A DNA stretch of 64,000 nucleotides from Octopus vulgaris (Eukaryota). Positions 24,900 through 43,612 of the stretch are shown here, piece by piece (position 1 is the stretch's first letter; every line of letters begins with the position of its first letter). The notes beneath the pieces were generated by a model. It searched no databases. It was not told where the DNA came from and saw only the letters and a program-made list of their open reading frames with translations. The stretch covers positions 92,690,001 through 92,754,000 of the forward strand of contig OX597820.1 in NCBI GenBank assembly GCA_951406725.2. Direction: 5' to 3'. A program made the translations under genes and the position numbers.

Positions 24900-27880
24900 C
24901 CAAACACAGAAAGCATATCAAAATGAACAAGGAAGCACAGCAAGGTTACATAATACATAAAATCAACAACAATTTCTATTATACACGAAGATATACCGCT
25001 AAATAATACTCTGCTGCTTTAAAGTGCATATCTAGTATAAATTTTAAATAGTTGTTGATTTTTTAAGATCTACTCATCGTTCTCCGTTGAAATTATAAAT
25101 CAGATCGTGTCGCTATACATGTGATGTAATTTATGATCTATTATTTTGTGCCGTTTCATTATCTATGTTCAACCTCGTGGCATCCTTGTCCGAATAAGTC
25201 TCCCATATCACTTACTATTTTGTATCCCTCGAGAGCCATAAAATACAGAAGAAAACATATCTATGTGGTCTATATTTTCAAAAAGACGTCTTTGAAGCAA
25301 GTTTTTCAGGATGATCTAGTTGTTGAAACCAGGGAAAATAGAAAGATATATTATCAATTCTTTAATATAAGTTACGCGCATTTCCTTATAACGACAGCGG
25401 CTAATGGAAGTACTTTTGCTTTTATATCACCTGATCAGAGCTGAAGTTGGAATTTTTTCATAGTGAACTGAACAGTTTGTTAAGATTCGAGATTAAACCA
25501 GCAGATCTAACGCACAATACACTAAATGCATATTTTCTTTCGTAAAGGTAAACATAGAAGCTCCACAGGACTGCATTTTAAGATCGCAACTGTATTGCAT
25601 TAACAATTGCGCAAGCTTAGACGTTACTCACGAGCAAGTATGACCTAGTAAATCTTACTGTGCTTTTGTTAAGTTCCTATATATTCGGGAATAGACATAG
25701 ATACCATCTCGATTCTCTCACAAGTGACTGAAGCTGAGGGGTGAAGCAACTGCACCAGCGATCATCTGGTCTCGGCTAGTGGTGGTCTGTCCTCGGGCAG
25801 GTCTTCTACGTGTAAGCCTTTTTCAGTAATCTCTATACCACCCGAGAGCGCCCTTCCCTGCCACAAGGAAATAGATTACTGGAACTTCGGCTTCTATAAC
25901 TAGACTTGATATGAATACCGGACAGTTTTCTTACTGACTTCCCCAGTCTGGGGAAGTCAAATAAAGTGCCATGTTCAAGAATATAACACAGTGCTCTATC
26001 CAGTAATCGAAATCTGGACCTTATGATCATGAACCCATTGCTGTATCCACAGAGGCAGACGAGTTTAAAATTTCTTTGTTACAATCATTGGCATCTTATT
26101 GTCGGAATCTCTCTGTTGCACTGGTGCTAGAAAGTTATACAATTTGCTACAAGTAACCGATATAGTGATTGTTTACTTGGTGTGATATCACATGAAACCA
26201 ATATGTTGAGAAAACTTTTTAGGATATCGTTATATTGATAAAAAGAAAGTCGTGTGTCGAGCAATCTAACTGATATCAGTGTTTGTGTAAGTATATATTA
26301 TATAAAATTTCCTGGCCAGTTTATCCTCCAGTCCTCGTATTTGAAGATTAAAGAAATGGATATTATGTATTGATGTGTTAAAGCTATAGTATTACAGCAT
26401 TTTGGAGTTAGTTCTTACGAACTGAATAACTACTTCTCTCCACACTATTAGTATCCAATACCTGGATAAGTTTGTATTCACTGCATCGAAATTCAGTGTG
26501 GAAGACATGTTCCATGTATAAGTTCTTTCTTATGTGTTACGCATACCCCTAGAAACAAGGCAACTTGTTGAGAAGTGGTTTATTTTTAAAGCATTAAATA
26601 GGGCTGAACTCTTCTAGAATGAACGATCATCTAAAATATTGCTTCTATAAAATGAATATAGTATATATTTGACATTCGTTCCTTCTGAGTTTTCACCCTT
26701 GGAGTCAATAAAATAAGTACCAGTTGAACACTGGGATCGATATAATCGACTATTTGCCTTCCCGCAATTACTGTCCTTCTACCAAAGATTGAAATCAATA
26801 TTCATTAAGTATTTTGTTTTTTGAAACCATGTTTAACTTTTAATTATAATAAAAGAGAGAACACAGCTTATTTGGTGCGGACGATAGCCATTGATTTAAC
26901 ATAACGACCAGAAATGTTAACATTAATATAATGGCACTTGCATTTCTGTGAAGAAGGAATTTTGGTTCAGTTACTTACCACTCTTAAAGTGTTATTATCG
27001 ACAGGGAATTATTTAGCGCCAGCTATACTAATGCTATTCTACGTAAAGGTGACATTTGACCCATAATCTATCAAATTTCTACATTTATATATGTTACAAT
27101 CGATCAATTATTTATAAACTGAGGAGTTTATACGACCATAATCGTAGTCATTGCTCCACTTTTCTGGCAACTAACGACTACTCGTTCAAAGTTCACTAGA
27201 TTTGAGAAGCTATAAACTAGACTCATTAGTATTGAATGCCATTTTGTCAGGTTCTCAGTTGCAAATAGCTTCAGGTTCGCTCCGAGTTCACTTGTGATAC
27301 TATACTGTTCTAATTTGATTATTTGCCTACACATTTCCAAAATTTCGTCAATACAGATCTCAATAATGTGACAATTTGCCGAATAGTATAAATGAAGTTA
27401 ACTACGAATTAAGATTCTTAATTATTTGCTGTATCGTACTGCATTACTGAAATATCGCTTGATAACATAGACGATCAATAAATAGAATGCAGCATTGTGT
27501 AATGCATTACGTGTATACAATAAGTTTCGGCTGCTTTGTAATTACTCGTCGAGGCAGTAAACATATAACATTGGGATAAACGGTGTTTAAAGTGTCAATG
27601 CCGTATTTTTAAAGACTTCAACTTTCATCCCGATCTCAAATAAATCTAATAGTAGAGCATGCTGTAAGGGATATAAAAATTGCGAGCGTATAATATCTTC
27701 TAGTTGAGAGCATCTAATAATACCGAAACATATAAAGAGTTGTCACCATATTAACATAGATCACAATTTCTTCCCCACTATTCCATTACTTCCTCCTGTT
27801 TAGAACCATACTGGTTCAATGATATCTACAAATAATTGTTAACTTATTAAAAGCACAAATCTGAACTATGATCGTATATA
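24900..27880 (-). pseudogene. Decayed Cys-rich family copy G (longest, interrupted by SINE relics)
   Basis: NTVYPNVICLL (27587-27555), CHIIEICIDEILEMC, YSFSNLVNF..SCQK (ORF 27128-27340), GVCVTHKKELIHGTCLP..PGIGY (~26549-26455), LFGQGCHEVE (~25195-25166), then a hydrophobic stretch at ~24975-24895. Confidence 0.5.
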
Positions 27881-27883
27881 AAC

Positions 27884-27919
<36 letters not shown>

Positions 27920-27992
27920 GTTTATATACGATCATAGTTCAGATTTATGCTTTCATTAAGTTAACAATTATTTGTAGATATCATTGAACCAG

Positions 27993-27995
<3 letters not shown>
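27808..27995. repeat. Long palindrome: ~78-bp arms around (TA)n
   Basis: atactggttcaatgatatctacaaataattgttaac...tataaacatta is mirrored as taatgtttatatacg...tgaaccagtat, with about 4 mismatches. Confidence 0.95.
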
Positions 27996-28025
<30 letters not shown>

Positions 28026-28026
<1 letters not shown>

Positions 28027-28628
28027 ACTTGGTGTTGAATAGATATACTATTAAATTAGTATCTAATTCTCTCACCCTTATTAATTAATTATAATTATGC
28101 TACATTTATTTCTAAATGTAGTATTTGATTCCCTGAAAGTTTGGCGCCCTGTTGGTAGAGGCATTTGAATTATAACGTCGGATGTAATCAATTGAACCAC
28201 ACGTGTATTTATCGTTATGGTAAAATCTGGCGTGTGATTGAGTGGATTTCATCCAGATAGTTTTGGCTGAGGAGCTACAAGTGAGTTTTTTGTGAGTAAA
28301 ATTACATGTAATTCATTAATAGCGAAACAATTGTCCCAAAATAATCTGTATTTTTGTTGTTTTTTATTTACCCTGTTCGTGTGAGCTAACAATCGTACTG
28401 GCTTTCATGGGAAACATGTATTTTTGTGGTTGAAACCTTTTGGATTTACTAGTGCTAGAGTGAGCCACATAGTGACCACTCTCTTATATTTATTTTTGTA
28501 TAAAATATTATAATATGTCATAAAATATTATAATAATCCAGGTTTCTCGGGGCACTGGGCAACTTGGTGTTGAATAGATATACTATTAAATTAGTATCTA
28601 ATTCTCTCACCCTTATTAATTAATTATA
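28026..28628 (+). mobile_element. Retrozyme-like element: 535-bp monomer with 68-bp terminal redundancy, inserted in (TA)n
   Basis: 28026-28093 is identical to 28561-28628. No ORF. Intact hammerhead inside and (TA)n on both sides. Confidence 0.75.
28254..28348 (+). ncRNA. Type-I hammerhead ribozyme, canonical core, GUC cleavage site
   Basis: CAGATAGTTTTGG-CTGAGGA-GCTA-(42 nt)-TAGC-GAAA-CAATTG-TC-CCAAAATAATCTG. Helix I has 12 of 13 pairs, helix II has 4 bp, and helix III is palindromic. Predicted cut 3' of C28335. Confidence 0.88.
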
Positions 28629-28659
28629 TATATATATATATATATATATTTGTATTATA

Positions 28660-30929: not shown

Positions 30930-31087
30930 CGCATTTACATTCCCGGTTCAAATTCCATCAAGGACGGCTTTGCTTTTCATCTTTGCGATGTCGATGAAAT
31001 AAGCAGAGGGGGAACACTGAAGTCGATGTAATCAACTAGCTTCACTACCCAAAATTTCATGCCTTGTTTCTAATGTAGAAAGGTTTA
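30930..31087 (+). mobile_element. SINE family 2, partial
   Basis: ggttcaaattcc...tttgcttttcatc...gtcgatgtaatcaact...caaaatttcatgccttg. Confidence 0.75.
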
Positions 31088-31743
31088 TTATTATTATTAT
31101 CCTCACCATCATCCTCAACTACAACAATGTTTTTAATTACTATTGATATTGCCAACATATGATAGAATGCGTCTGTTGTGTTTTAATATTCTGTTTATAC
31201 TACGTATGATGGTTGCTCCCTAAAACATGTTTCTGCAGTTCTACAGCTTGCTAGATGTTTGAATCGAATGTTTGATCTGACTCAATTATTTCTATGGCAG
31301 GAAATAATGTAAATATTTTTCAATGGAATTTTGCATTCGTAGAAATTGATCTCGATCGTTATGTTTTCTGCTTCAACTTACAACAACATGTTATTTGCCA
31401 AATTTCTAGCTACATTATATGAAAGAGTGTATTTGTTTTTATGTCAAGAGGATATATATATGAAGAGTAGATGTTTTCATAATCATTAATGTTCAAAAGA
31501 TTTGCTCAAAATAAAAATCGAAATGGATTAAAACAAGAACAAAAATAAAGTTGAATATGCCAGAGAATCCCTATAATTTTCCTGAACTGGATTGTATTTA
31601 CCTTGAAGTGATGTGGAGAATTAAGTGAATTAAACTACTGTATATTCTACTTGGTAGGGAAGAAGAAAATAGAGAAAAAGAAAGGAAGCAGAAACTATCT
31701 ATAGTAATCAGGGATAAAATCTTGCTTCTATACACGAGACCGA

Positions 31744-33500: not shown

Positions 33501-34544
33501 TGTGGAGCTATATTCATAAAAAGAGTTAACCCAGCACACGGTTTATGAGACGCCGCTGAGTTTTACGTTTTGTGATGGCCTGTAGTTGTGAGTTTTACGT
33601 TTTCGAAAGTACATGATTTATTAAGTAAAGTAAACCGACATAAGTTAAGCGTCTTAAGACTGCACTATGAACCATCTCATATTCTTGTATGAGCTGAAGT
33701 GTCTATGAACCAGCTTATAAGCTTGTCTGAATAATAGATATTTTAGGTTTAGCATATCATTTTTTGAATAAAATATTTTCTTCTAAGTATTTATTTAAGT
33801 ACGGAGTATAATCACCGCTATGAAGTTACATTGGTTTAAGTATCATATAAAAATATTAAGAATATGAAATATATTTGTCATATACTAAATCAAACACTAT
33901 CTACCTAAAATGTATATCATACTATCTATGCCCTGAGTAATCTCTCGTACACGTGGGAAAAATGGTAAAACTGGTGTTTGTATATGCTTAAAAGAAATAC
34001 GGAGAGTGTTGTCATCTCAAATTTGATAGTTCTGCAGCATCTTTTTATTGAACACTTATGCGTAATACGCCCCTTTATTTTTCATCCACTTGTACTGCTT
34101 CTCGACATCATTTAATTATCGAGTATATTAAGAACATCATATCCGTTATTTGCCTCAAGGAAAATGTTTCATAGTAACAGTAAATTGTCTTTCATCTTTC
34201 CGGGATGGATAAAATGAGCACCAATTGTGTGGTGTCGATAGTGATGGCAATATAGCTGGCTTCAATTTGAACAATAATAAGAATTCTGATATTAACAATA
34301 TAAAGGCGTAGCATGGAAATAAAACGTGTAGTTTTATGGATGGATGGATGGATGGATGGATGGATGGATTTATGGATGGATATTTGTATGTATGTGTATA
34401 AATATGTAAGCGTATATTCATGTGTTTATGTGTGTGTATCTATCTATCTGTATGTACGTAGGTATGTATGCCTGTGTGTGTATATTATTGTATATATTTT
34501 GTAAGTGATGAGTTGGTAGTAATTATTAAAATTTTCTTATAAAG

Positions 34545-34848
34545 CGAGACGTTCCGGGTTCAAATTCCGCCACAGTCGTCTTTGCTTTCCATCTCTTTCG
34601 GAGTCGTTAAATTAAGTGCTATATGAACACTGGTGTCAATGTAATCGACTAAATCCCTCCCCGAAAATGCTGGTTTTGTGCCAAAAACTTGAAACTGGTA
34701 TTAACGGTGCTTCTGCCGTCGGTGCAGGCTTTGTTTCTTTTCCCTCCAAGGTCGATACATTGTCTATCAGTTGAACACTGGGATCGACGTAATCGATGTA
34801 CTTCTTCCCTCTAAATCACTAGTCTTGTGCAAAGTTTCGAACGAATAT
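34545..34848 (+). mobile_element. Two adjacent partial SINE family 2 copies
   Basis: The ...gaacactgg..tc.a.gtaatcga... core occurs twice (34545-34702 and ~34725-34848). Confidence 0.75.
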
Positions 34849-37199
34849 TAAAGGTAGTTGAAGAATCTTTCGCATCGAACTCTAGTTCTTTACATCTGCT
34901 GTATTCTTAAAGATTCTGCTTTCTGCAGTTCCACGTTACGTTTCCTTAGAATCTAATTTACATTTAATAAATATCTCTATTTTGACGTTAGAAGTGACAG
35001 AACAATTCCTGTTCTGCTGCGTAGATAACATATACACGATTATAAAGTAGACGGAAGCTTTTTAGAGTAACTCTTCGCAAGACGCTGTATTGCTTAGCAA
35101 ACTCCGTTGACGATAATTTCCGTTCTTCTGGTCACATAACTCACAAAACGAACAGCAATCGAGTTTAGCTTTCCACATTTGATGACTATGTAAAGCTAAA
35201 GACTATTATTCACTTAGCTCTAAATCGGAAGAGAGTAATAATCTTAAGTTTAATTATATGAGCTGATGGATATATTGTAGATAAATTTATGATCATAACT
35301 GCCGAAATTGTGAATATCCGTGTTATATATTGTACTTTTGTGTAGTACAAATTTTCAGGCATGAAGTTTTTCTCTCCAAAAGATCCTACTCATTCTTCAT
35401 TTTTCTCAATATAACTGAATACTATGAGCTCCAATATTTTTTCCATGCATGGTTAAGCAAGGGAAGAAATTATTAGAGACATTCAACCTTTTTTACGCAA
35501 GAAAAGATTTGACAATTCCTTCATTCAATAATATCTATAACCTTTCTTTCCTGTGCAAAGTGGGGCTGCGGCCAATTTTTAGAATTGATTTCTTCAAGAA
35601 AATCAATGTTAAAAAATTGATGAAACTATCACCATGAAAATGGTAATATATCGCTGGCCTGAACAGCCTGATCTCATGTAACATTACAATGATTCTTGTG
35701 TACGTATGTGTTTATCTCTGTATTTGCGTGTGAGTGTCTATGTATATGTGGTTGAGTGTCTCTGTATGTATATGTACCAAAAGGTTAATCAATATGTGTG
35801 AGTGTGCATGTACAAAAGGTTAATCAATATGTTTCATGTTCATATAACAACACAATTTCTGACATGTATTCAAGTGGTGCGAAACGTCATGTCAGAGGTA
35901 GTTTGCTACCAACTGGCTATACATACTTATCTATTTCATATCACAACTGGTGAATAATAGCATTGTTGGATACCGGTTTGTAAATGCTTAATTATTTATA
36001 CGGAAGAGTAATTGATTGTCTAACAAAGAGGAAGAAATATCATAGATTGTCTTTTTATTCGACAGTACCTATGTTGCAGTTCTTTCGTATATCTCTATTA
36101 GCGAAAGACACAAATAAACACACACACACACACATCTACATAACAAAAATACATACATGCATACATATTGTGGTGTTTTTCTGCACAGTTTTGGCCACTA
36201 CTTAATTTTACACATAAGGCTTTTGTAGTAAATATTTGCCCATAGCACTTCGTGGTGAGTTCGAAACTGCAGTCACATTATTAAGAAATGAACCTCTTAA
36301 CTAAACAACTATACAAGTCAGCATCTTTACTACATATAGTACATATTGTCTTTATCACATAGCTTTCGCATTCTCTAACATTTAAAATTGGATAAAATTA
36401 AACGGTATTTTTATATGTAATATATATTTGTTTGTTTATTTCCAAAATATAATTTCTTGTACATAGTTGTATAGCTTTATGGCAGATTTTAAATATACAC
36501 TTACAATCAATGAATAATATTTTATCGATGAATAATTCATTATTAATAAATAATAATTTTGTTATTACCAATAAATAACAGCGTTGTAAATTAATAATCT
36601 TTGTACCATATGATTTCACAAACATGTACCATTTGATAATTTTGTCATATTAAATTTATCATGTATGTATTTATAAGCACATATATGTATTCGTGTATTT
36701 ATTAATATCGATATATTAATTCATTATTACATCTATATTTCATAAAATAAGTGTATGTGTGAATCTGTGTTTACAGTTTATATACTGACATCAATATGTT
36801 ATATACATATGTATTTATATTTCAAATTAAAATACTATGCTTCGGACGTTATTAGTCATCGGAAGAAATGCAAATATTAACAAATGTTTTATCTTCAAGG
36901 ATTTAATATCAATTTGTTAATGAAATGCTGAAGATTGATGAAACTTAGAAGAAATTCGAATATAATGTTAGATAATAATCATTTATTTTGAACGGGAGTA
37001 GATTTGTAATGTGTATTGTTATAAATTAAGTTACATGTAACGTTTTCTCTTTATTTTCTATGAAGATATCTAGTGCCTTCGGGTTTATATGGTGACTCAG
37101 AGGACAGAAAGCGTTATCAACAATCCTGAGACCTAGTCTGTATAATTGCTACATAGCTTGAAATCTATTGGCAATATATTAATCATTGAATTAATGATG

Positions 37200-37365
37200 T
37201 AGGCGTAGGAGTGGCTGTGTGGTAAGAAGCTTGCTTACCAACCATATGGTTCTGGGTTCAGTCCCACTGCGTGGCATCTTGAGCAGGTGTCTTCTACTAT
37301 AACCACGGGCCGACCAAAGCCAATGAGTGGATTTGGTAGGCGGAAACTGAAAGAATCCCGTCGTA

Positions 37366-37420
<55 letters not shown>

Positions 37421-37634
37421 ATGTGTGTGTATACGTTGTGTGTCTGTGCTTGTCCCCCAAGCATCGCTTGACAACCGATGCTGGTGTGTTTACGTCCCCG
37501 TAACTTAGCGGTTCGGCAAAAGAGACCGATAGAATAAGTACTAGGCTTACAACGAATAAGTCCTGGGGTCGATTTGCTCGACTAAAGGCGGTGCTCTAGC
37601 ATGGCCACAGTCAAGTAACTGAAACAAGTAAAAG
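37200..37634 (+). mobile_element. tRNA-derived SINE family 1, full length
   Basis: aggcgtaggagtggctgtgtggtaag...ggttcagtccc head, central TA/TG tract and conserved tail. Confidence 0.92.
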
Positions 37635-37726
37635 CGTAAGGGATTAAAATATTGAAAAACAAAAATTTGACATTGGCTTACTTCTACCGGTTGAAAACAG
37701 CGCTTGTTGTCAAATATCAACTGTTC

Positions 37727-39399: not shown

Positions 39400-40070
39400 A
39401 TAAACTTCACTCTTATCTCTCGACAACAAAAACTTGCAGTTATTCTGACTAGTAATCTCCTTCCTCTCTCTCATTACTGCTAAGATATCTGCTTTATCTA
39501 CCCTCTTCGTATTCGTCCAACCCACAACTCTTCGACTATATTTCTTTTAGCATCGAGTATATGTGTTTCACTTCCCCATACGATTAACTCATCATTGGGG
39601 GAGACTTCTGGGACAACAAAACGTTTTAGTTGTTACCTTACACACATCCCATACTTTGCTAACAGTGCAAAACCTGAATCATTCACGATCTTCTACATTC
39701 TACAGCAACTATTTGCCTCTCAAACCCATATAGAAAGACTCAAAATAATCGTGATATCTTAATCTTCTCTAACCCAATACAACCTTGCCAATTCCATACC
39801 GTCTTTTGATTTCTCGGTTCATTTGATAACAATCCTAACCAGACGACCTGGCATACGTCCACATGATGAACAAAACTGATTCTCTAGTTCAGTGTTAAAC
39901 TATGCCCGGTTAAACTCGCGCTCATCCTTCACCTACCAAAACCAGTAAGGTAGATAGTTGTAAATCTACCTCTTAGCAATGTCCATTAGAGGAATCTGCA
40001 CATTTCTTATGCTAAACTTTTGGTCTACGTTGACGTTTTTTCATCAGAGAACTATAGAATGCCCAGTTCG
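39400..40070 (-). mobile_element. Decayed RTE-like LINE relic
   Basis: Minus strand EIKRRYGIGK-like motif (~39815-39785) and downstream W/GH-like segments. Confidence 0.4.
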
Positions 40071-41299
40071 TGACAGTTTTTACCCATGTTAAGTACCACT
40101 TTGGTACGGAACAAAACGGATCAAGCTTGTGTCTTTCTATAGCACAAAGACACAATCACTAAATCTGTTAAGATATGTTTCTTTATTAGCCACACAAGGC
40201 TGCACTCAGACGGGACAGATTTCAAAGTAGATCTTTTATTTTGGGGAAGAAAAAATATTGGGGGTAGGTTTTCGATCAAAATGGATCGTAAAAGGGAAAA
40301 AACGATCAATAGGGATCCTGTATCCTGTTAAGATAAATAGGATACAACTAGAGTCCTCAAGATCACTACAAATGCTAGTCTCCACTATACCTGGGTATCT
40401 CTTCTGGCGAAAGAACATGTACAAAATAAACAAACACAAACAAATATCATCTCTCTATAAAGATCACGTGGGTCTCATGTTGAATTAGACCAATAGATCT
40501 GGAACTGTGCTGATGCTGTTCATACATATTGCTATGACTGCATTCAAAGAAGCTTACTTCCTTTTATAACATACGGTTATGTGTTAATACATAGCTATAT
40601 TTTATAACGTGCATTCATGAGTCATGGCCTTGTAGGTTATTAGACATAAATAGTGTACCAATATTTCAACCATTAGCTCATTGGGCGGTTGAAGTTGAGG
40701 ATGACAAATGTTTTTGTACTGGGCGTTGAAAGCCTTCCACCTTGTCTTGTGTGATGTTTACGAATTGTAGCTTTCCAACGATTGTTAGCCAAGTCTAGAA
40801 AGCTCATCTTGAACACGTGAGATTTAGTATCAGACACGAATGTACTAGTTCACTAAAAGTGAAGTGGTCCATTCAAAAGTAGTGATGCAATACCTTGGAG
40901 ATTCCGGTTCCTGTAAAGACATAAAGTTAAAAGGATAGATTTTCCAATTGTTTGATATATGAGGGTATTAGTTTTCAACATTAGAAAATGGAAAATTGAA
41001 TGAGACTTCAGTACAAACGAAAAGAGAACATGTACACGGACATTTGATACACTAGAAAATGTAAACAAATCTTTAAATAACATACTACCTTCTTAAAGAA
41101 GGGAGGACACATCGGACGATGTGATTCAAGATACAATTTTTTTTACAAAAATTGTGAATATATCTGGAACACTATATCCATCCTGTTAACAGGATAGATC
41201 TGATGTTCCAGCATCAACTACCAAATGTGTTCATAAGAATCTTTACAAGTTGACGCTATCTTTATAAGTAAAATTAGTTCAATATAATACTGAAATCTA

Positions 41300-42431: not shown

Positions 42432-42473
<42 letters not shown>

Positions 42474-42695
42474 TCAATATAGGGTGGCAAAAAAATTTTG
42501 TAGAATTCTTTTGCCACCAGCGGCCTAGTAGGAAAAAATTAAAATAGTCATAGACCATTTTCAAGTTCAACATCAACAATAAAGGAACGGCCATAATAGG
42601 CCATTCACCCACTAGAAATAACAGCCAAAGCTTCAACCGCAAATAAAAGTTAATTCAGTAAACCAGGAGAAAATTTAAAAAACATTTACCCTGTA

Positions 42696-42802
42696 ATTTC
42701 TTATACGATATACCGTTTCATCTGCTGATTAATGGTAAACTAACTTGATTAAATTAAATCAAGCCAATCTTCCACAGGCCCTCAGATTCTTCAGTAAGAA
42801 AT
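42696..42802 (-). ncRNA. Type-I hammerhead ribozyme, canonical core, GUA cleavage site (copy 1)
   Basis: Minus strand ATTTCTTA-CTGAAGA-ATCTG-(58 nt)-CAGAT-GAAA-CGGTATATCG-TA-TAAGAAAT, with an 8-bp helix I and a 5-bp helix II. Predicted cut between 42704 and 42703. Confidence 0.9.
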
Positions 42803-43187
42803 AGCCCAAGACGGAACAGATATTTTCACGAGGCATTTCCGACGTTGCCAAGTTTATATCTGACCTAAAATTTTCAAATCGTCGCACTCGCGCCAAATTT
42901 ATCGGCAGCAAATAAATATAAGCCGTCGATTCCATTACGGAATTAACCAGAAAATTCATAATTAATCAATATAGGGTGGCAAAAAAATTTTGTAGAATTC
43001 TTTTGCCACCAGCGGCCTAGTAGGAAAAAATTAAAATAGTCATAGACCATTTTCAAGTTCAACATCAACAATAAAGGAACGGCCATAATAGGCCATTCAC
43101 CCACTAGAAATAACAGCCAAAGCTTCAACCGCAAATAAAAGTTAATTCAGTAAACCAGGAGAAAATTTAAAAAACATTTACCCTGTA

Positions 43188-43294
43188 ATTTCTTATACGA
43201 TATACCGTTTCATCTGCTGATTAATGGTAAACTAACTTGATTAAATTAAATCAAGCCAATCTTCCACAGGCCCTCAGATTCTTCAGTAAGAAAT
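43188..43294 (-). ncRNA. Type-I hammerhead ribozyme (copy 2)
   Basis: Identical motif exactly 492 bp from copy 1. Confidence 0.9.
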
Positions 43295-43612
43295 AGCCCA
43301 AGACGGAACAGATATTTTCACGAGGCATTTCCGACGTTGCCAAGTTTATATCTGACCTAAAATTTTCAAATCGTCGCACTCGCGCCAAATTTATCGGCAG
43401 CAAATAAATATAAGCCGTCGATTCCATTACGGAATTAACCAGAAAATTCATAATTAATCAATATAGGGTGGCAAAAAAATTTTGTAGAATTCTTTTGCCA
43501 CCAGCGGCCTAGTAGGAAAAAATTAAAATAGTCATAGACCATTTTCAAGTTCAACATCAACAATAAAGGAACGGCCATAATAGGCCATTCACCCACTAGA
43601 AATAACAGCCAA

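Follow-up and report, generated by a model that had tools for sequence, protein, structure and literature searches.

A 5'-truncated hammerhead retrozyme copy in a TA microsatellite of Octopus vulgaris, likely inserted by a borrowed Penelope-type enzyme

Results

The insertion and its surroundings

The stretch of DNA analysed here (the window; 64,000 nucleotides of Octopus vulgaris contig OX597820.1) carries at 28026-28628 one copy of a non-coding repeat family that occupies roughly a thousand loci in the genome (Table 1). In the unit numbering used throughout, q1 corresponds to 28094 and q535 to 28628. A previous sequence-only reading had described a non-coding hammerhead repeat of 1.13 units with an exact 68-bp direct repeat of period 535, (TA)n on both sides and a cut site at 28335, and these descriptions agree with what we found: the 603 bp belong to a 535-bp family, the 68-nt repeat is exact (28026-28093 = 28561-28628) with its last TA overlapping the TA tract, (TA)n lies at 27993-28024 and 28625-28649, and the hammerhead motif is present as described, its cleavage being predicted. 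No ATG open reading frame longer than 46 aa lies within the 535-bp element; an RT plus GIY-YIG frame is likewise absent from it, so that it does not qualify as an autonomous Penelope-type element (PLE). The truncation at q468 coincides with the base of the terminal hairpin; 6 of 82 family 5' ends lie there within 14 nt, a slight excess. This hairpin is weak in the 535-bp unit (z -1.2), and its counterpart in the 492 family is strong (z -4.4).

Upstream of the insertion lies a palindrome that the previous reading had missed. It matches only itself, and its interpretation as a MITE was rejected; it is possibly a fold-back made during the insertion at 28026-28628. Flank fold-backs are not clearly enriched around family copies (15 one-sided cases in 232 flanks, compared with 6 in 157 controls), and target-site duplications are unreadable within TA tracts. 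At two other loci, L160 and L174, one flank repeats the other in inverted orientation, over 72 and 114 bp. Contig depth marks further multi-copy repeats in the window at 30969-31535, 34371-34937, 40041-40607 and ~37200-37640, the last of which is extremely abundant by this measure and begins at a TA tract.

Table 1. Coordinates of the features in the window, with unit positions (q) of the 535-bp family.
Feature	Position	Strand	Remarks
Whole insertion	28026..28628	+	603 bp = 1.13 units of the 535-bp family; one-armed; 5' truncation at q468, 3' end at fixed site E1
Partial second round	28026..28093	+	q468-535 (the 68-bp redundancy); terminal hairpin and end motif
One full 535-bp unit	28094..28628	+	phase ending at E1
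Type I hammerhead motif	28261..28341	+	6-bp stem I, long stem II, 2-bp helix III; predicted cut after 28335
Stem I	28261-28266 / 28336-28341		TTTTGG / CCAAAA
Hammerhead core	28267-28273; 28324-28327		CTGAGGA; GAAA
Stem II base	28274-28277 / 28320-28323		GCTA / TAGC
Hammerhead 3' part			after GAAA: C-AATT-G, then TC, predicted cut after 28335
Helix III region	28327-28334		self-complementary ACAATTGT
E2	28494..28500	+	second fixed 3' end site of the 535 family, unused in this copy
Terminal hairpin and E1	28566..28628	+	closed by GGTG/CACC, then CTTATTAATTAATTA = E1
3' junction	28625..28649	unstranded	(TA)n target tract
5' junction	27993..28025	unstranded	(TA)n (27993-28024) plus AAATAA
Palindrome	27808..27995	unstranded	94-bp arms: ~78 bp single-copy host flank, TA tract, inverted flank copy
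Sister family array	42466..43612	-	2.3 identical 492-bp units; predicted hammerhead cuts at ~43196 and ~42704; E1/E2 end logic likewise

The hammerhead motif

A strict type I descriptor of our own matched once in the 535-bp unit and in none of 2000 dinucleotide shuffles, and over the entire window its only further matches were the two motifs in the 492-bp array; Rfam gave no hammerhead match at gathering score or at E<=10. The segment 28255-28350 folds at z = -3.17, with none of 200 shuffles equally stable, and its minimum free energy fold is without helix III. The 12-nt stretch around the self-complementary ACAAUUGU has a computed self-duplex energy of -7.8 kcal/mol, and a two-pair helix III together with self-complementary ACAAUUGU is an arrangement described as dimer-requiring in the consulted part of PMC4209133; in the accessible text of a 2026 preprint, cleavage of dimers is given for only 1 of 9 (bioRxiv 10.64898/2026.07.22.740005). 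Across 70 loci the ribozyme core is near-invariant, N7 excepted, and one stem I pair is changed from U-A to C-G in 4 loci and to a C-A mismatch in 14 of ~70. Self-cleavage of 535-family RNA is a prediction from sequence. For a PLE, hammerhead cleavage was found to be dispensable and the main substrate to be unprocessed RNA (PMC11167929).

Family size and variation of the 5' ends

Searches of the 2.8-Gb genome gave 1493 candidate matches of the 535-bp unit and 2134 exact matches of the ribozyme 3' core. The junction of the 3' end site E1 with (TA)n had 1483 exact matches, 535 and 492 families together, 59 of the first 100 matches listed (all on contig C1) being of the 535 family, and E2 with (TA)n matched 371 times on the forward strand; the controls of the core and of both junction patterns gave 0. 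We analysed 58 loci of the 535 family anchored on E1 and not chosen by length, 34 loci of best score, 44 loci of the 492 family and 20 longer fetches, so that our sample, anchored on E1, covers a few per cent of the 535 family. One identical two-armed insertion occurs at three places of C1 (L086, L063 and L178) through a larger duplication, and L178 was dropped before and L063 after the arm count.

Across the surveyed copies the family consists of dispersed, non-coding tandem repeats, from monomer to multimer, with a hammerhead motif in each unit by our descriptor and without a fixed LTR pair. The 5' ends spread from q1 to q492 and the arms measure from 44 bp to more than 3000 bp, the longest, seen in the longer fetches, holding 12 full units plus part of another; in this survey matches below 33 nt were dropped, which inflates the class q5=1 and hides very short arms, and the tests of 5'-end position left out the q5=1 entries. 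Start points and redundancy lengths thus vary among genomic copies, as the sequence-only reading had predicted.

The same survey bears on the possibility that the 68 bp are a short LTR of a TRIM-like element or a target-site duplication. The identical 68-bp ends of the copy at 28026-28628 would suit either, as would three best-score copies starting at q469-471, although this set is biased by the query. However, the 68 bp belong to every unit, at loci with unrelated flanks, the ends of this element are not TG..CA, and copies with 5' ends and arm lengths as variable as those given above do not share fixed 68-bp ends, the outcome that had been named as decisive for an LTR. Since variable 5' ends are combined with two fixed 3' ends, both readings are refuted and retain practically no probability.

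Two fixed 3' ends and their pairing

The 3' ends of the 535 family are fixed at two sites, E1 at q535 (28628) and E2 at q401-407, ~130 nt upstream of E1. Among the 58 E1-anchored loci, 28 (27 independent) are two-armed with one arm ending at E1 and the other at E2, and none is E1/E1; the others comprise 23 one-armed E1 copies, 3 two-armed copies cut by the locus edge, 1 complex case and 3 that were scored as one-armed E2 and showed a short inverted E1 arm on inspection. Of five E1-anchored loci that had a second arm and were cut at a locus edge, longer fetches resolved 4 as E1/E2, and 1 stayed cut. E1/E2 pairs likewise account for 16 of 18 two-armed copies in the best-score set, the other two ending at q119 and q157, and for 18 of 19 in an unselected set of the 492 family. 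True E1/E1 or E2/E2 pairs were absent from the sampled loci, including those picked by E2; an apparent E1/E1 pair in the 492 best-score set (L043) proved to be a locus-edge artefact, its 1-386 piece being separately listed. A rare third 3' end near q107-119 was seen at L068 and L078.

The fixation of the 3' ends suggests that the phase of the copies is set by Penelope-type reverse-transcription start sites and that the 68 bp merely reflect the point of 5' truncation of the copy at 28026-28628. Of the circular permutation with free ends proposed earlier, the variable 5' starts are retained, but not free 3' ends. The 535 family combines 5' truncation, partial tandems, an inverted 5' copy and a one-end tail, all hallmarks of PLEs, and the E1/E2 pairing of head-to-head arms is the PLE 'tail' signature: according to the accessible parts of PMC3846280 and PMC8557442, inverted pLTRs of PLEs characteristically carry the tail at one end only.

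In 5 of the 27 pairs, or 7 if two borderline cases are counted, each arm contains sequence missing from its partner, as inspection also showed for L084 and L147; here neither arm can derive from the other, and the two must have been templated separately. The lengths of E1 and E2 arms are correlated (rho 0.54, p 0.0035, n=27), and the 5' stops of the two arms lie within 30 nt in phase in 10 of 30 cases compared with 3.75 expected (p 0.0014), suggesting that the arms are made in a coupled fashion or joined via hairpin microhomology. The arm junctions are near-palindromic in a third of the pairs.

The 492-bp sister family

The 492-bp array elsewhere in the window had been regarded as an unrelated family of like strategy, a view that our comparison overturns: it is a distant collinear homologue. 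The two units align collinearly, both ending at E1, with a score of 199 compared with a mean of 125 and a maximum of 160 for dinucleotide shuffles, and hairpin and end motif are common to both. The two families are diverged descendants of one element rather than a case of convergence. At L157 and L184 insertions of the two families neighbour each other in one TA tract. In the 492 family 5' ends cluster just downstream of the cut (11 of 42 within 30 nt, 2.6 expected), a pile-up that hairpins or AT-rich microhomology could also explain and that is absent from the 535 family (0 of 82 at q240-250).

Reading through the cut site and variation among units

Of 53 E1 arms of the 535 family, 36 extend beyond the cut site, 22 of them through it a second time. 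Because arms read through this site and no 5' ends lie there, the template was either a circle or an uncleaved multimer, and a cleaved linear monomer is ruled out. The proposal of a cDNA copied round a 535-nt circle is accordingly upheld as far as read-through is concerned, but an uncleaved multimeric transcript fits too.

Units diverge by 0.3% within an arm, by 0.5% between opposite arms and by 4.5% between loci. A locus's own units are closer to each other than to the nearest other locus in 21 of 48 loci within arms and in 11 of 26 between arms; since units of the nearest other locus are mostly no more distant than those within the locus, the low divergence within loci partly reflects young subfamilies. 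In 13 loci every covering unit carries alleles unseen in other sampled loci, and in 5 of these they extend across both arms. Among single-unit differences, 39 of 80 are alleles of other loci; 53 of the 61 variable sites of long arrays are confined to a single unit, and mosaics of variants occur at L025, L074, L158, L079 and L260. Such mosaic insertions are not given by a single monomer circle by itself. At L253 (q491), L260 (q144), L262 (q43 and q529), L180 (q69) and L184 (q89), several units of one array that are not neighbours share a rare or private allele, sometimes across both arms; this may represent a misread template base, gene conversion or an assembly artefact.

Most of the 535 unit, including the unit junction, is covered by contigs from runs guessed to be RNA, and one 565-nt contig of run X14 (535+30) wraps round the unit. 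Tandem DNA or read-through would give such contigs equally, and contig depth cannot rank the expression of the family.

Coding PLEs in the genome

The genome contains many intact frames with RT and GIY-YIG domains (EN+ PLEs), with TA targets as for the 535 family. In one such coding family two 3' end sites ~35 nt apart are followed by (TA)n, and the two two-armed copies that we saw, read by eye, each pair one end of each kind; of 38 entries in the corresponding table, recounted by eye, 9 were tailed, 22 short and 7 internal. At L201 (G000:C16:20834000-20842000) lies a coding family in which many 781-aa RT+GIY-YIG frames are intact; it also has a 346-aa frame upstream, targets TA and shows two 3' ends ~35 nt apart. 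A second intact family (L221-L250; 776 aa) has a 3' region of more than 1 kb that is conserved, GT/TA-rich and microsatellite-like. In a GIY-YIG scan and with a second protein query, which scored only the top candidates of thousands, no sampled coding PLE family shared ends or unit sequence with the 535 or 492 families. PLE fragments in the flanks of family loci likewise yielded no coding element with the 535 ends, and among 17 matches of a variant end pattern 16 were mutated 535 or 492 copies and 1 is unassigned, none with a PLE frame.

Discussion

How the copies may have arisen

The family, its TA targets, its two fixed 3' ends and variable 5' ends, the E1/E2 pairing, the reading through the cut site and the presence of similarly built coding PLEs are direct observations. 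Our preferred explanation, which we consider probable, is that the insertion at 28026-28628 is a 5'-truncated copy of a hammerhead retrozyme of the non-LTR type, pasted into a TA microsatellite by a borrowed PLE reverse transcriptase/GIY-YIG endonuclease that copied a 535-nt circle. We are highly confident of its first component, the mobilisation of the 535 family by a PLE, and, given such mobilisation, lean with some reserve towards a circular RNA as the favoured template. Tandem arrays would be transcribed and hammerheads, probably acting as dimers through ACAAUUGU, would cut out monomers that would then be ligated. After cutting (TA)n on both strands, the PLE protein would use the DNA ends to prime cDNA at E1 and E2 within the RNA; the AU-rich ends of these sites could base-pair with TA. 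Each cDNA would run a variable distance round the unit, giving arms from partial to more than 12 units, and the truncated cDNAs would finally be joined either in pairs, head to head, or singly to the TA tract. PLE reverse transcriptases are not known to carry RNase H, whose absence would allow repeated rounds. At 28026-28628 a cDNA started from E1 would have stopped after 603 nt, at the base of the terminal hairpin on its second round, and the other DNA end may have folded back, copying 78 bp of host flank instead of an E2 arm.

The same twin priming could act on another template, an uncleaved linear multimeric transcript or RNAs between which the enzyme switches, with the ribozyme idle and no circle formed. 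The mosaic arrays with alleles in some units only, the weak helix III, the use of unprocessed RNA as substrate (PMC11167929) and the close 5' stops of the two arms, as expected for co-termination on one molecule, all agree with such a template. Arms of more than 12 units, however, would need equally long transcripts left uncut at every ribozyme, truncation alone would shorten arrays over generations, and neither the single-unit restriction of 53 of 61 variable sites nor the private alleles present in all units, nor the conservation of the core across subfamilies, is readily accommodated; we therefore regard this explanation as rather unlikely, though it deserves serious weight. Clearly less probable in our view is that a PLE inserts monomers or short copies, the arrays then growing by unequal crossover or slippage, a local-growth model found in the accessible text of bioRxiv 10.64898/2026.07.22.740005, and the inverted arms arising by self-priming fold-back, as proposed in the consulted part of PMC3846280. 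Near-palindromic arm junctions, the host-flank palindrome adjoining the copy at 28026-28628 and the irregular spread of private alleles, which fits gene conversion, are in line with these processes, but non-nested arm pairs cannot be fold-back copies, the pairing of E1 with E2 is strict, both arms can be multi-unit with correlated lengths, and the copy at 28026-28628, with its 1.13 units, offers only a 68-bp repeat for unequal exchange.

Returning to the circular template, we tentatively put forward a more specific scheme as a possibility, twin-primed rolling-circle reverse transcription, in which a PLE protein, probably a dimer, would load one ribozyme-made circle, prime both (TA)n ends at sites 130 nt apart and send both polymerases round the same circle. 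If this were true, the private substitutions that recur irregularly at L253, L260, L262 and L184 would show where a modified or damaged template base was misread in some of the rounds.

Relation to retrozymes and Penelope-like elements

The class to which the family belongs, animal non-LTR retrozymes with a proposed dependence on PLEs, is already known, as the accessible parts of PMC7229834, PMC7761336 and bioRxiv 10.64898/2026.07.22.740005 make clear. Like the metazoan retrozymes of PMC7229834 and the preprint, to the extent of the text available from both, the 535 family is non-coding and poor in GC, has a single type I hammerhead in each tandem unit, ranges from monomers to multimers without LTRs and occurs in a genome that also contains PLEs; for those retrozymes a PLE or LINE enzyme has been proposed to turn circular RNA into tandem cDNA. 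Its unit is longer than the 150-450 bp given in the consulted part of PMC7229834, but within the 51-972 bp of the accessible preprint text. In contrast to metazoan retrozymes as these partial sources describe them, the 535 family has a long stem II and strict (TA)n targeting, and its two fixed 3' ends with paired inverted arms have no counterpart in those descriptions. Circles have been shown for metazoan retrozymes in the portions available, whereas the 535 family is known here from DNA. Our search of the mainly open literature turned up neither the 535 family nor paired fixed ends as a described feature of retrozymes; similar families may be listed in the supplements of the 2026 preprint. 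The mobilising enzyme of animal retrozymes and the circle as template are named as open in the consulted parts of PMC7229834 and PMC7761336, and the case for PLEs in the accessible text of the 2026 preprint is built only on co-occurrence and pLTR homology (bioRxiv 10.64898/2026.07.22.740005). Since the insertions described here carry a PLE footprint, with exact predicted starts on a small, defined RNA, and intact PLEs are present in the genome, the existing in vitro PLE assay could test the question directly.

A further parallel is provided by the non-autonomous PLEs of Chlamys (e.g. MRC1), which, in the part of PMC8557442 consulted, are non-coding PLE dependants, multicopy in head-to-tail order, that were at one time taken for LTR elements. 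Their 3'-end sequence, however, is shared with an autonomous family, and their clade is without canonical hammerheads in that account, whereas the 535 family has a predicted hammerhead and no partner among the coding families sampled.

The closest resemblance in the structure of the insertions is to EN+ PLEs and their pLTRs, which, by the accessible parts of PMC3846280, PMC8557442 and PMC4209133, show 5' truncation, partial tandems, a head-to-head inverted copy, a one-end tail, a hammerhead in the repeat and AT-rich or (TA)n targets, and which have two internal RT start sites (PMC11167929). In that study the PLE protein cut AT-rich DNA and extended both strands, the two internal RNA sites where it started being the limits of the tail (PMC11167929). 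Unlike EN+ PLEs, the 535 family is without an ORF, forms arrays of the repeat alone and has no sequence link that we could find to a coding element; its tail of ~130 nt, and that of 105 nt in the 492 family, also exceed the 30-40 nt given for EN+ PLEs in the portions consulted. From its sequence, the 535 family would best be described as an animal non-LTR retrozyme with an unusually clear PLE footprint, and its strict rule of one end of each kind bears on the formation of the inverted repeats and tails of PLEs themselves.
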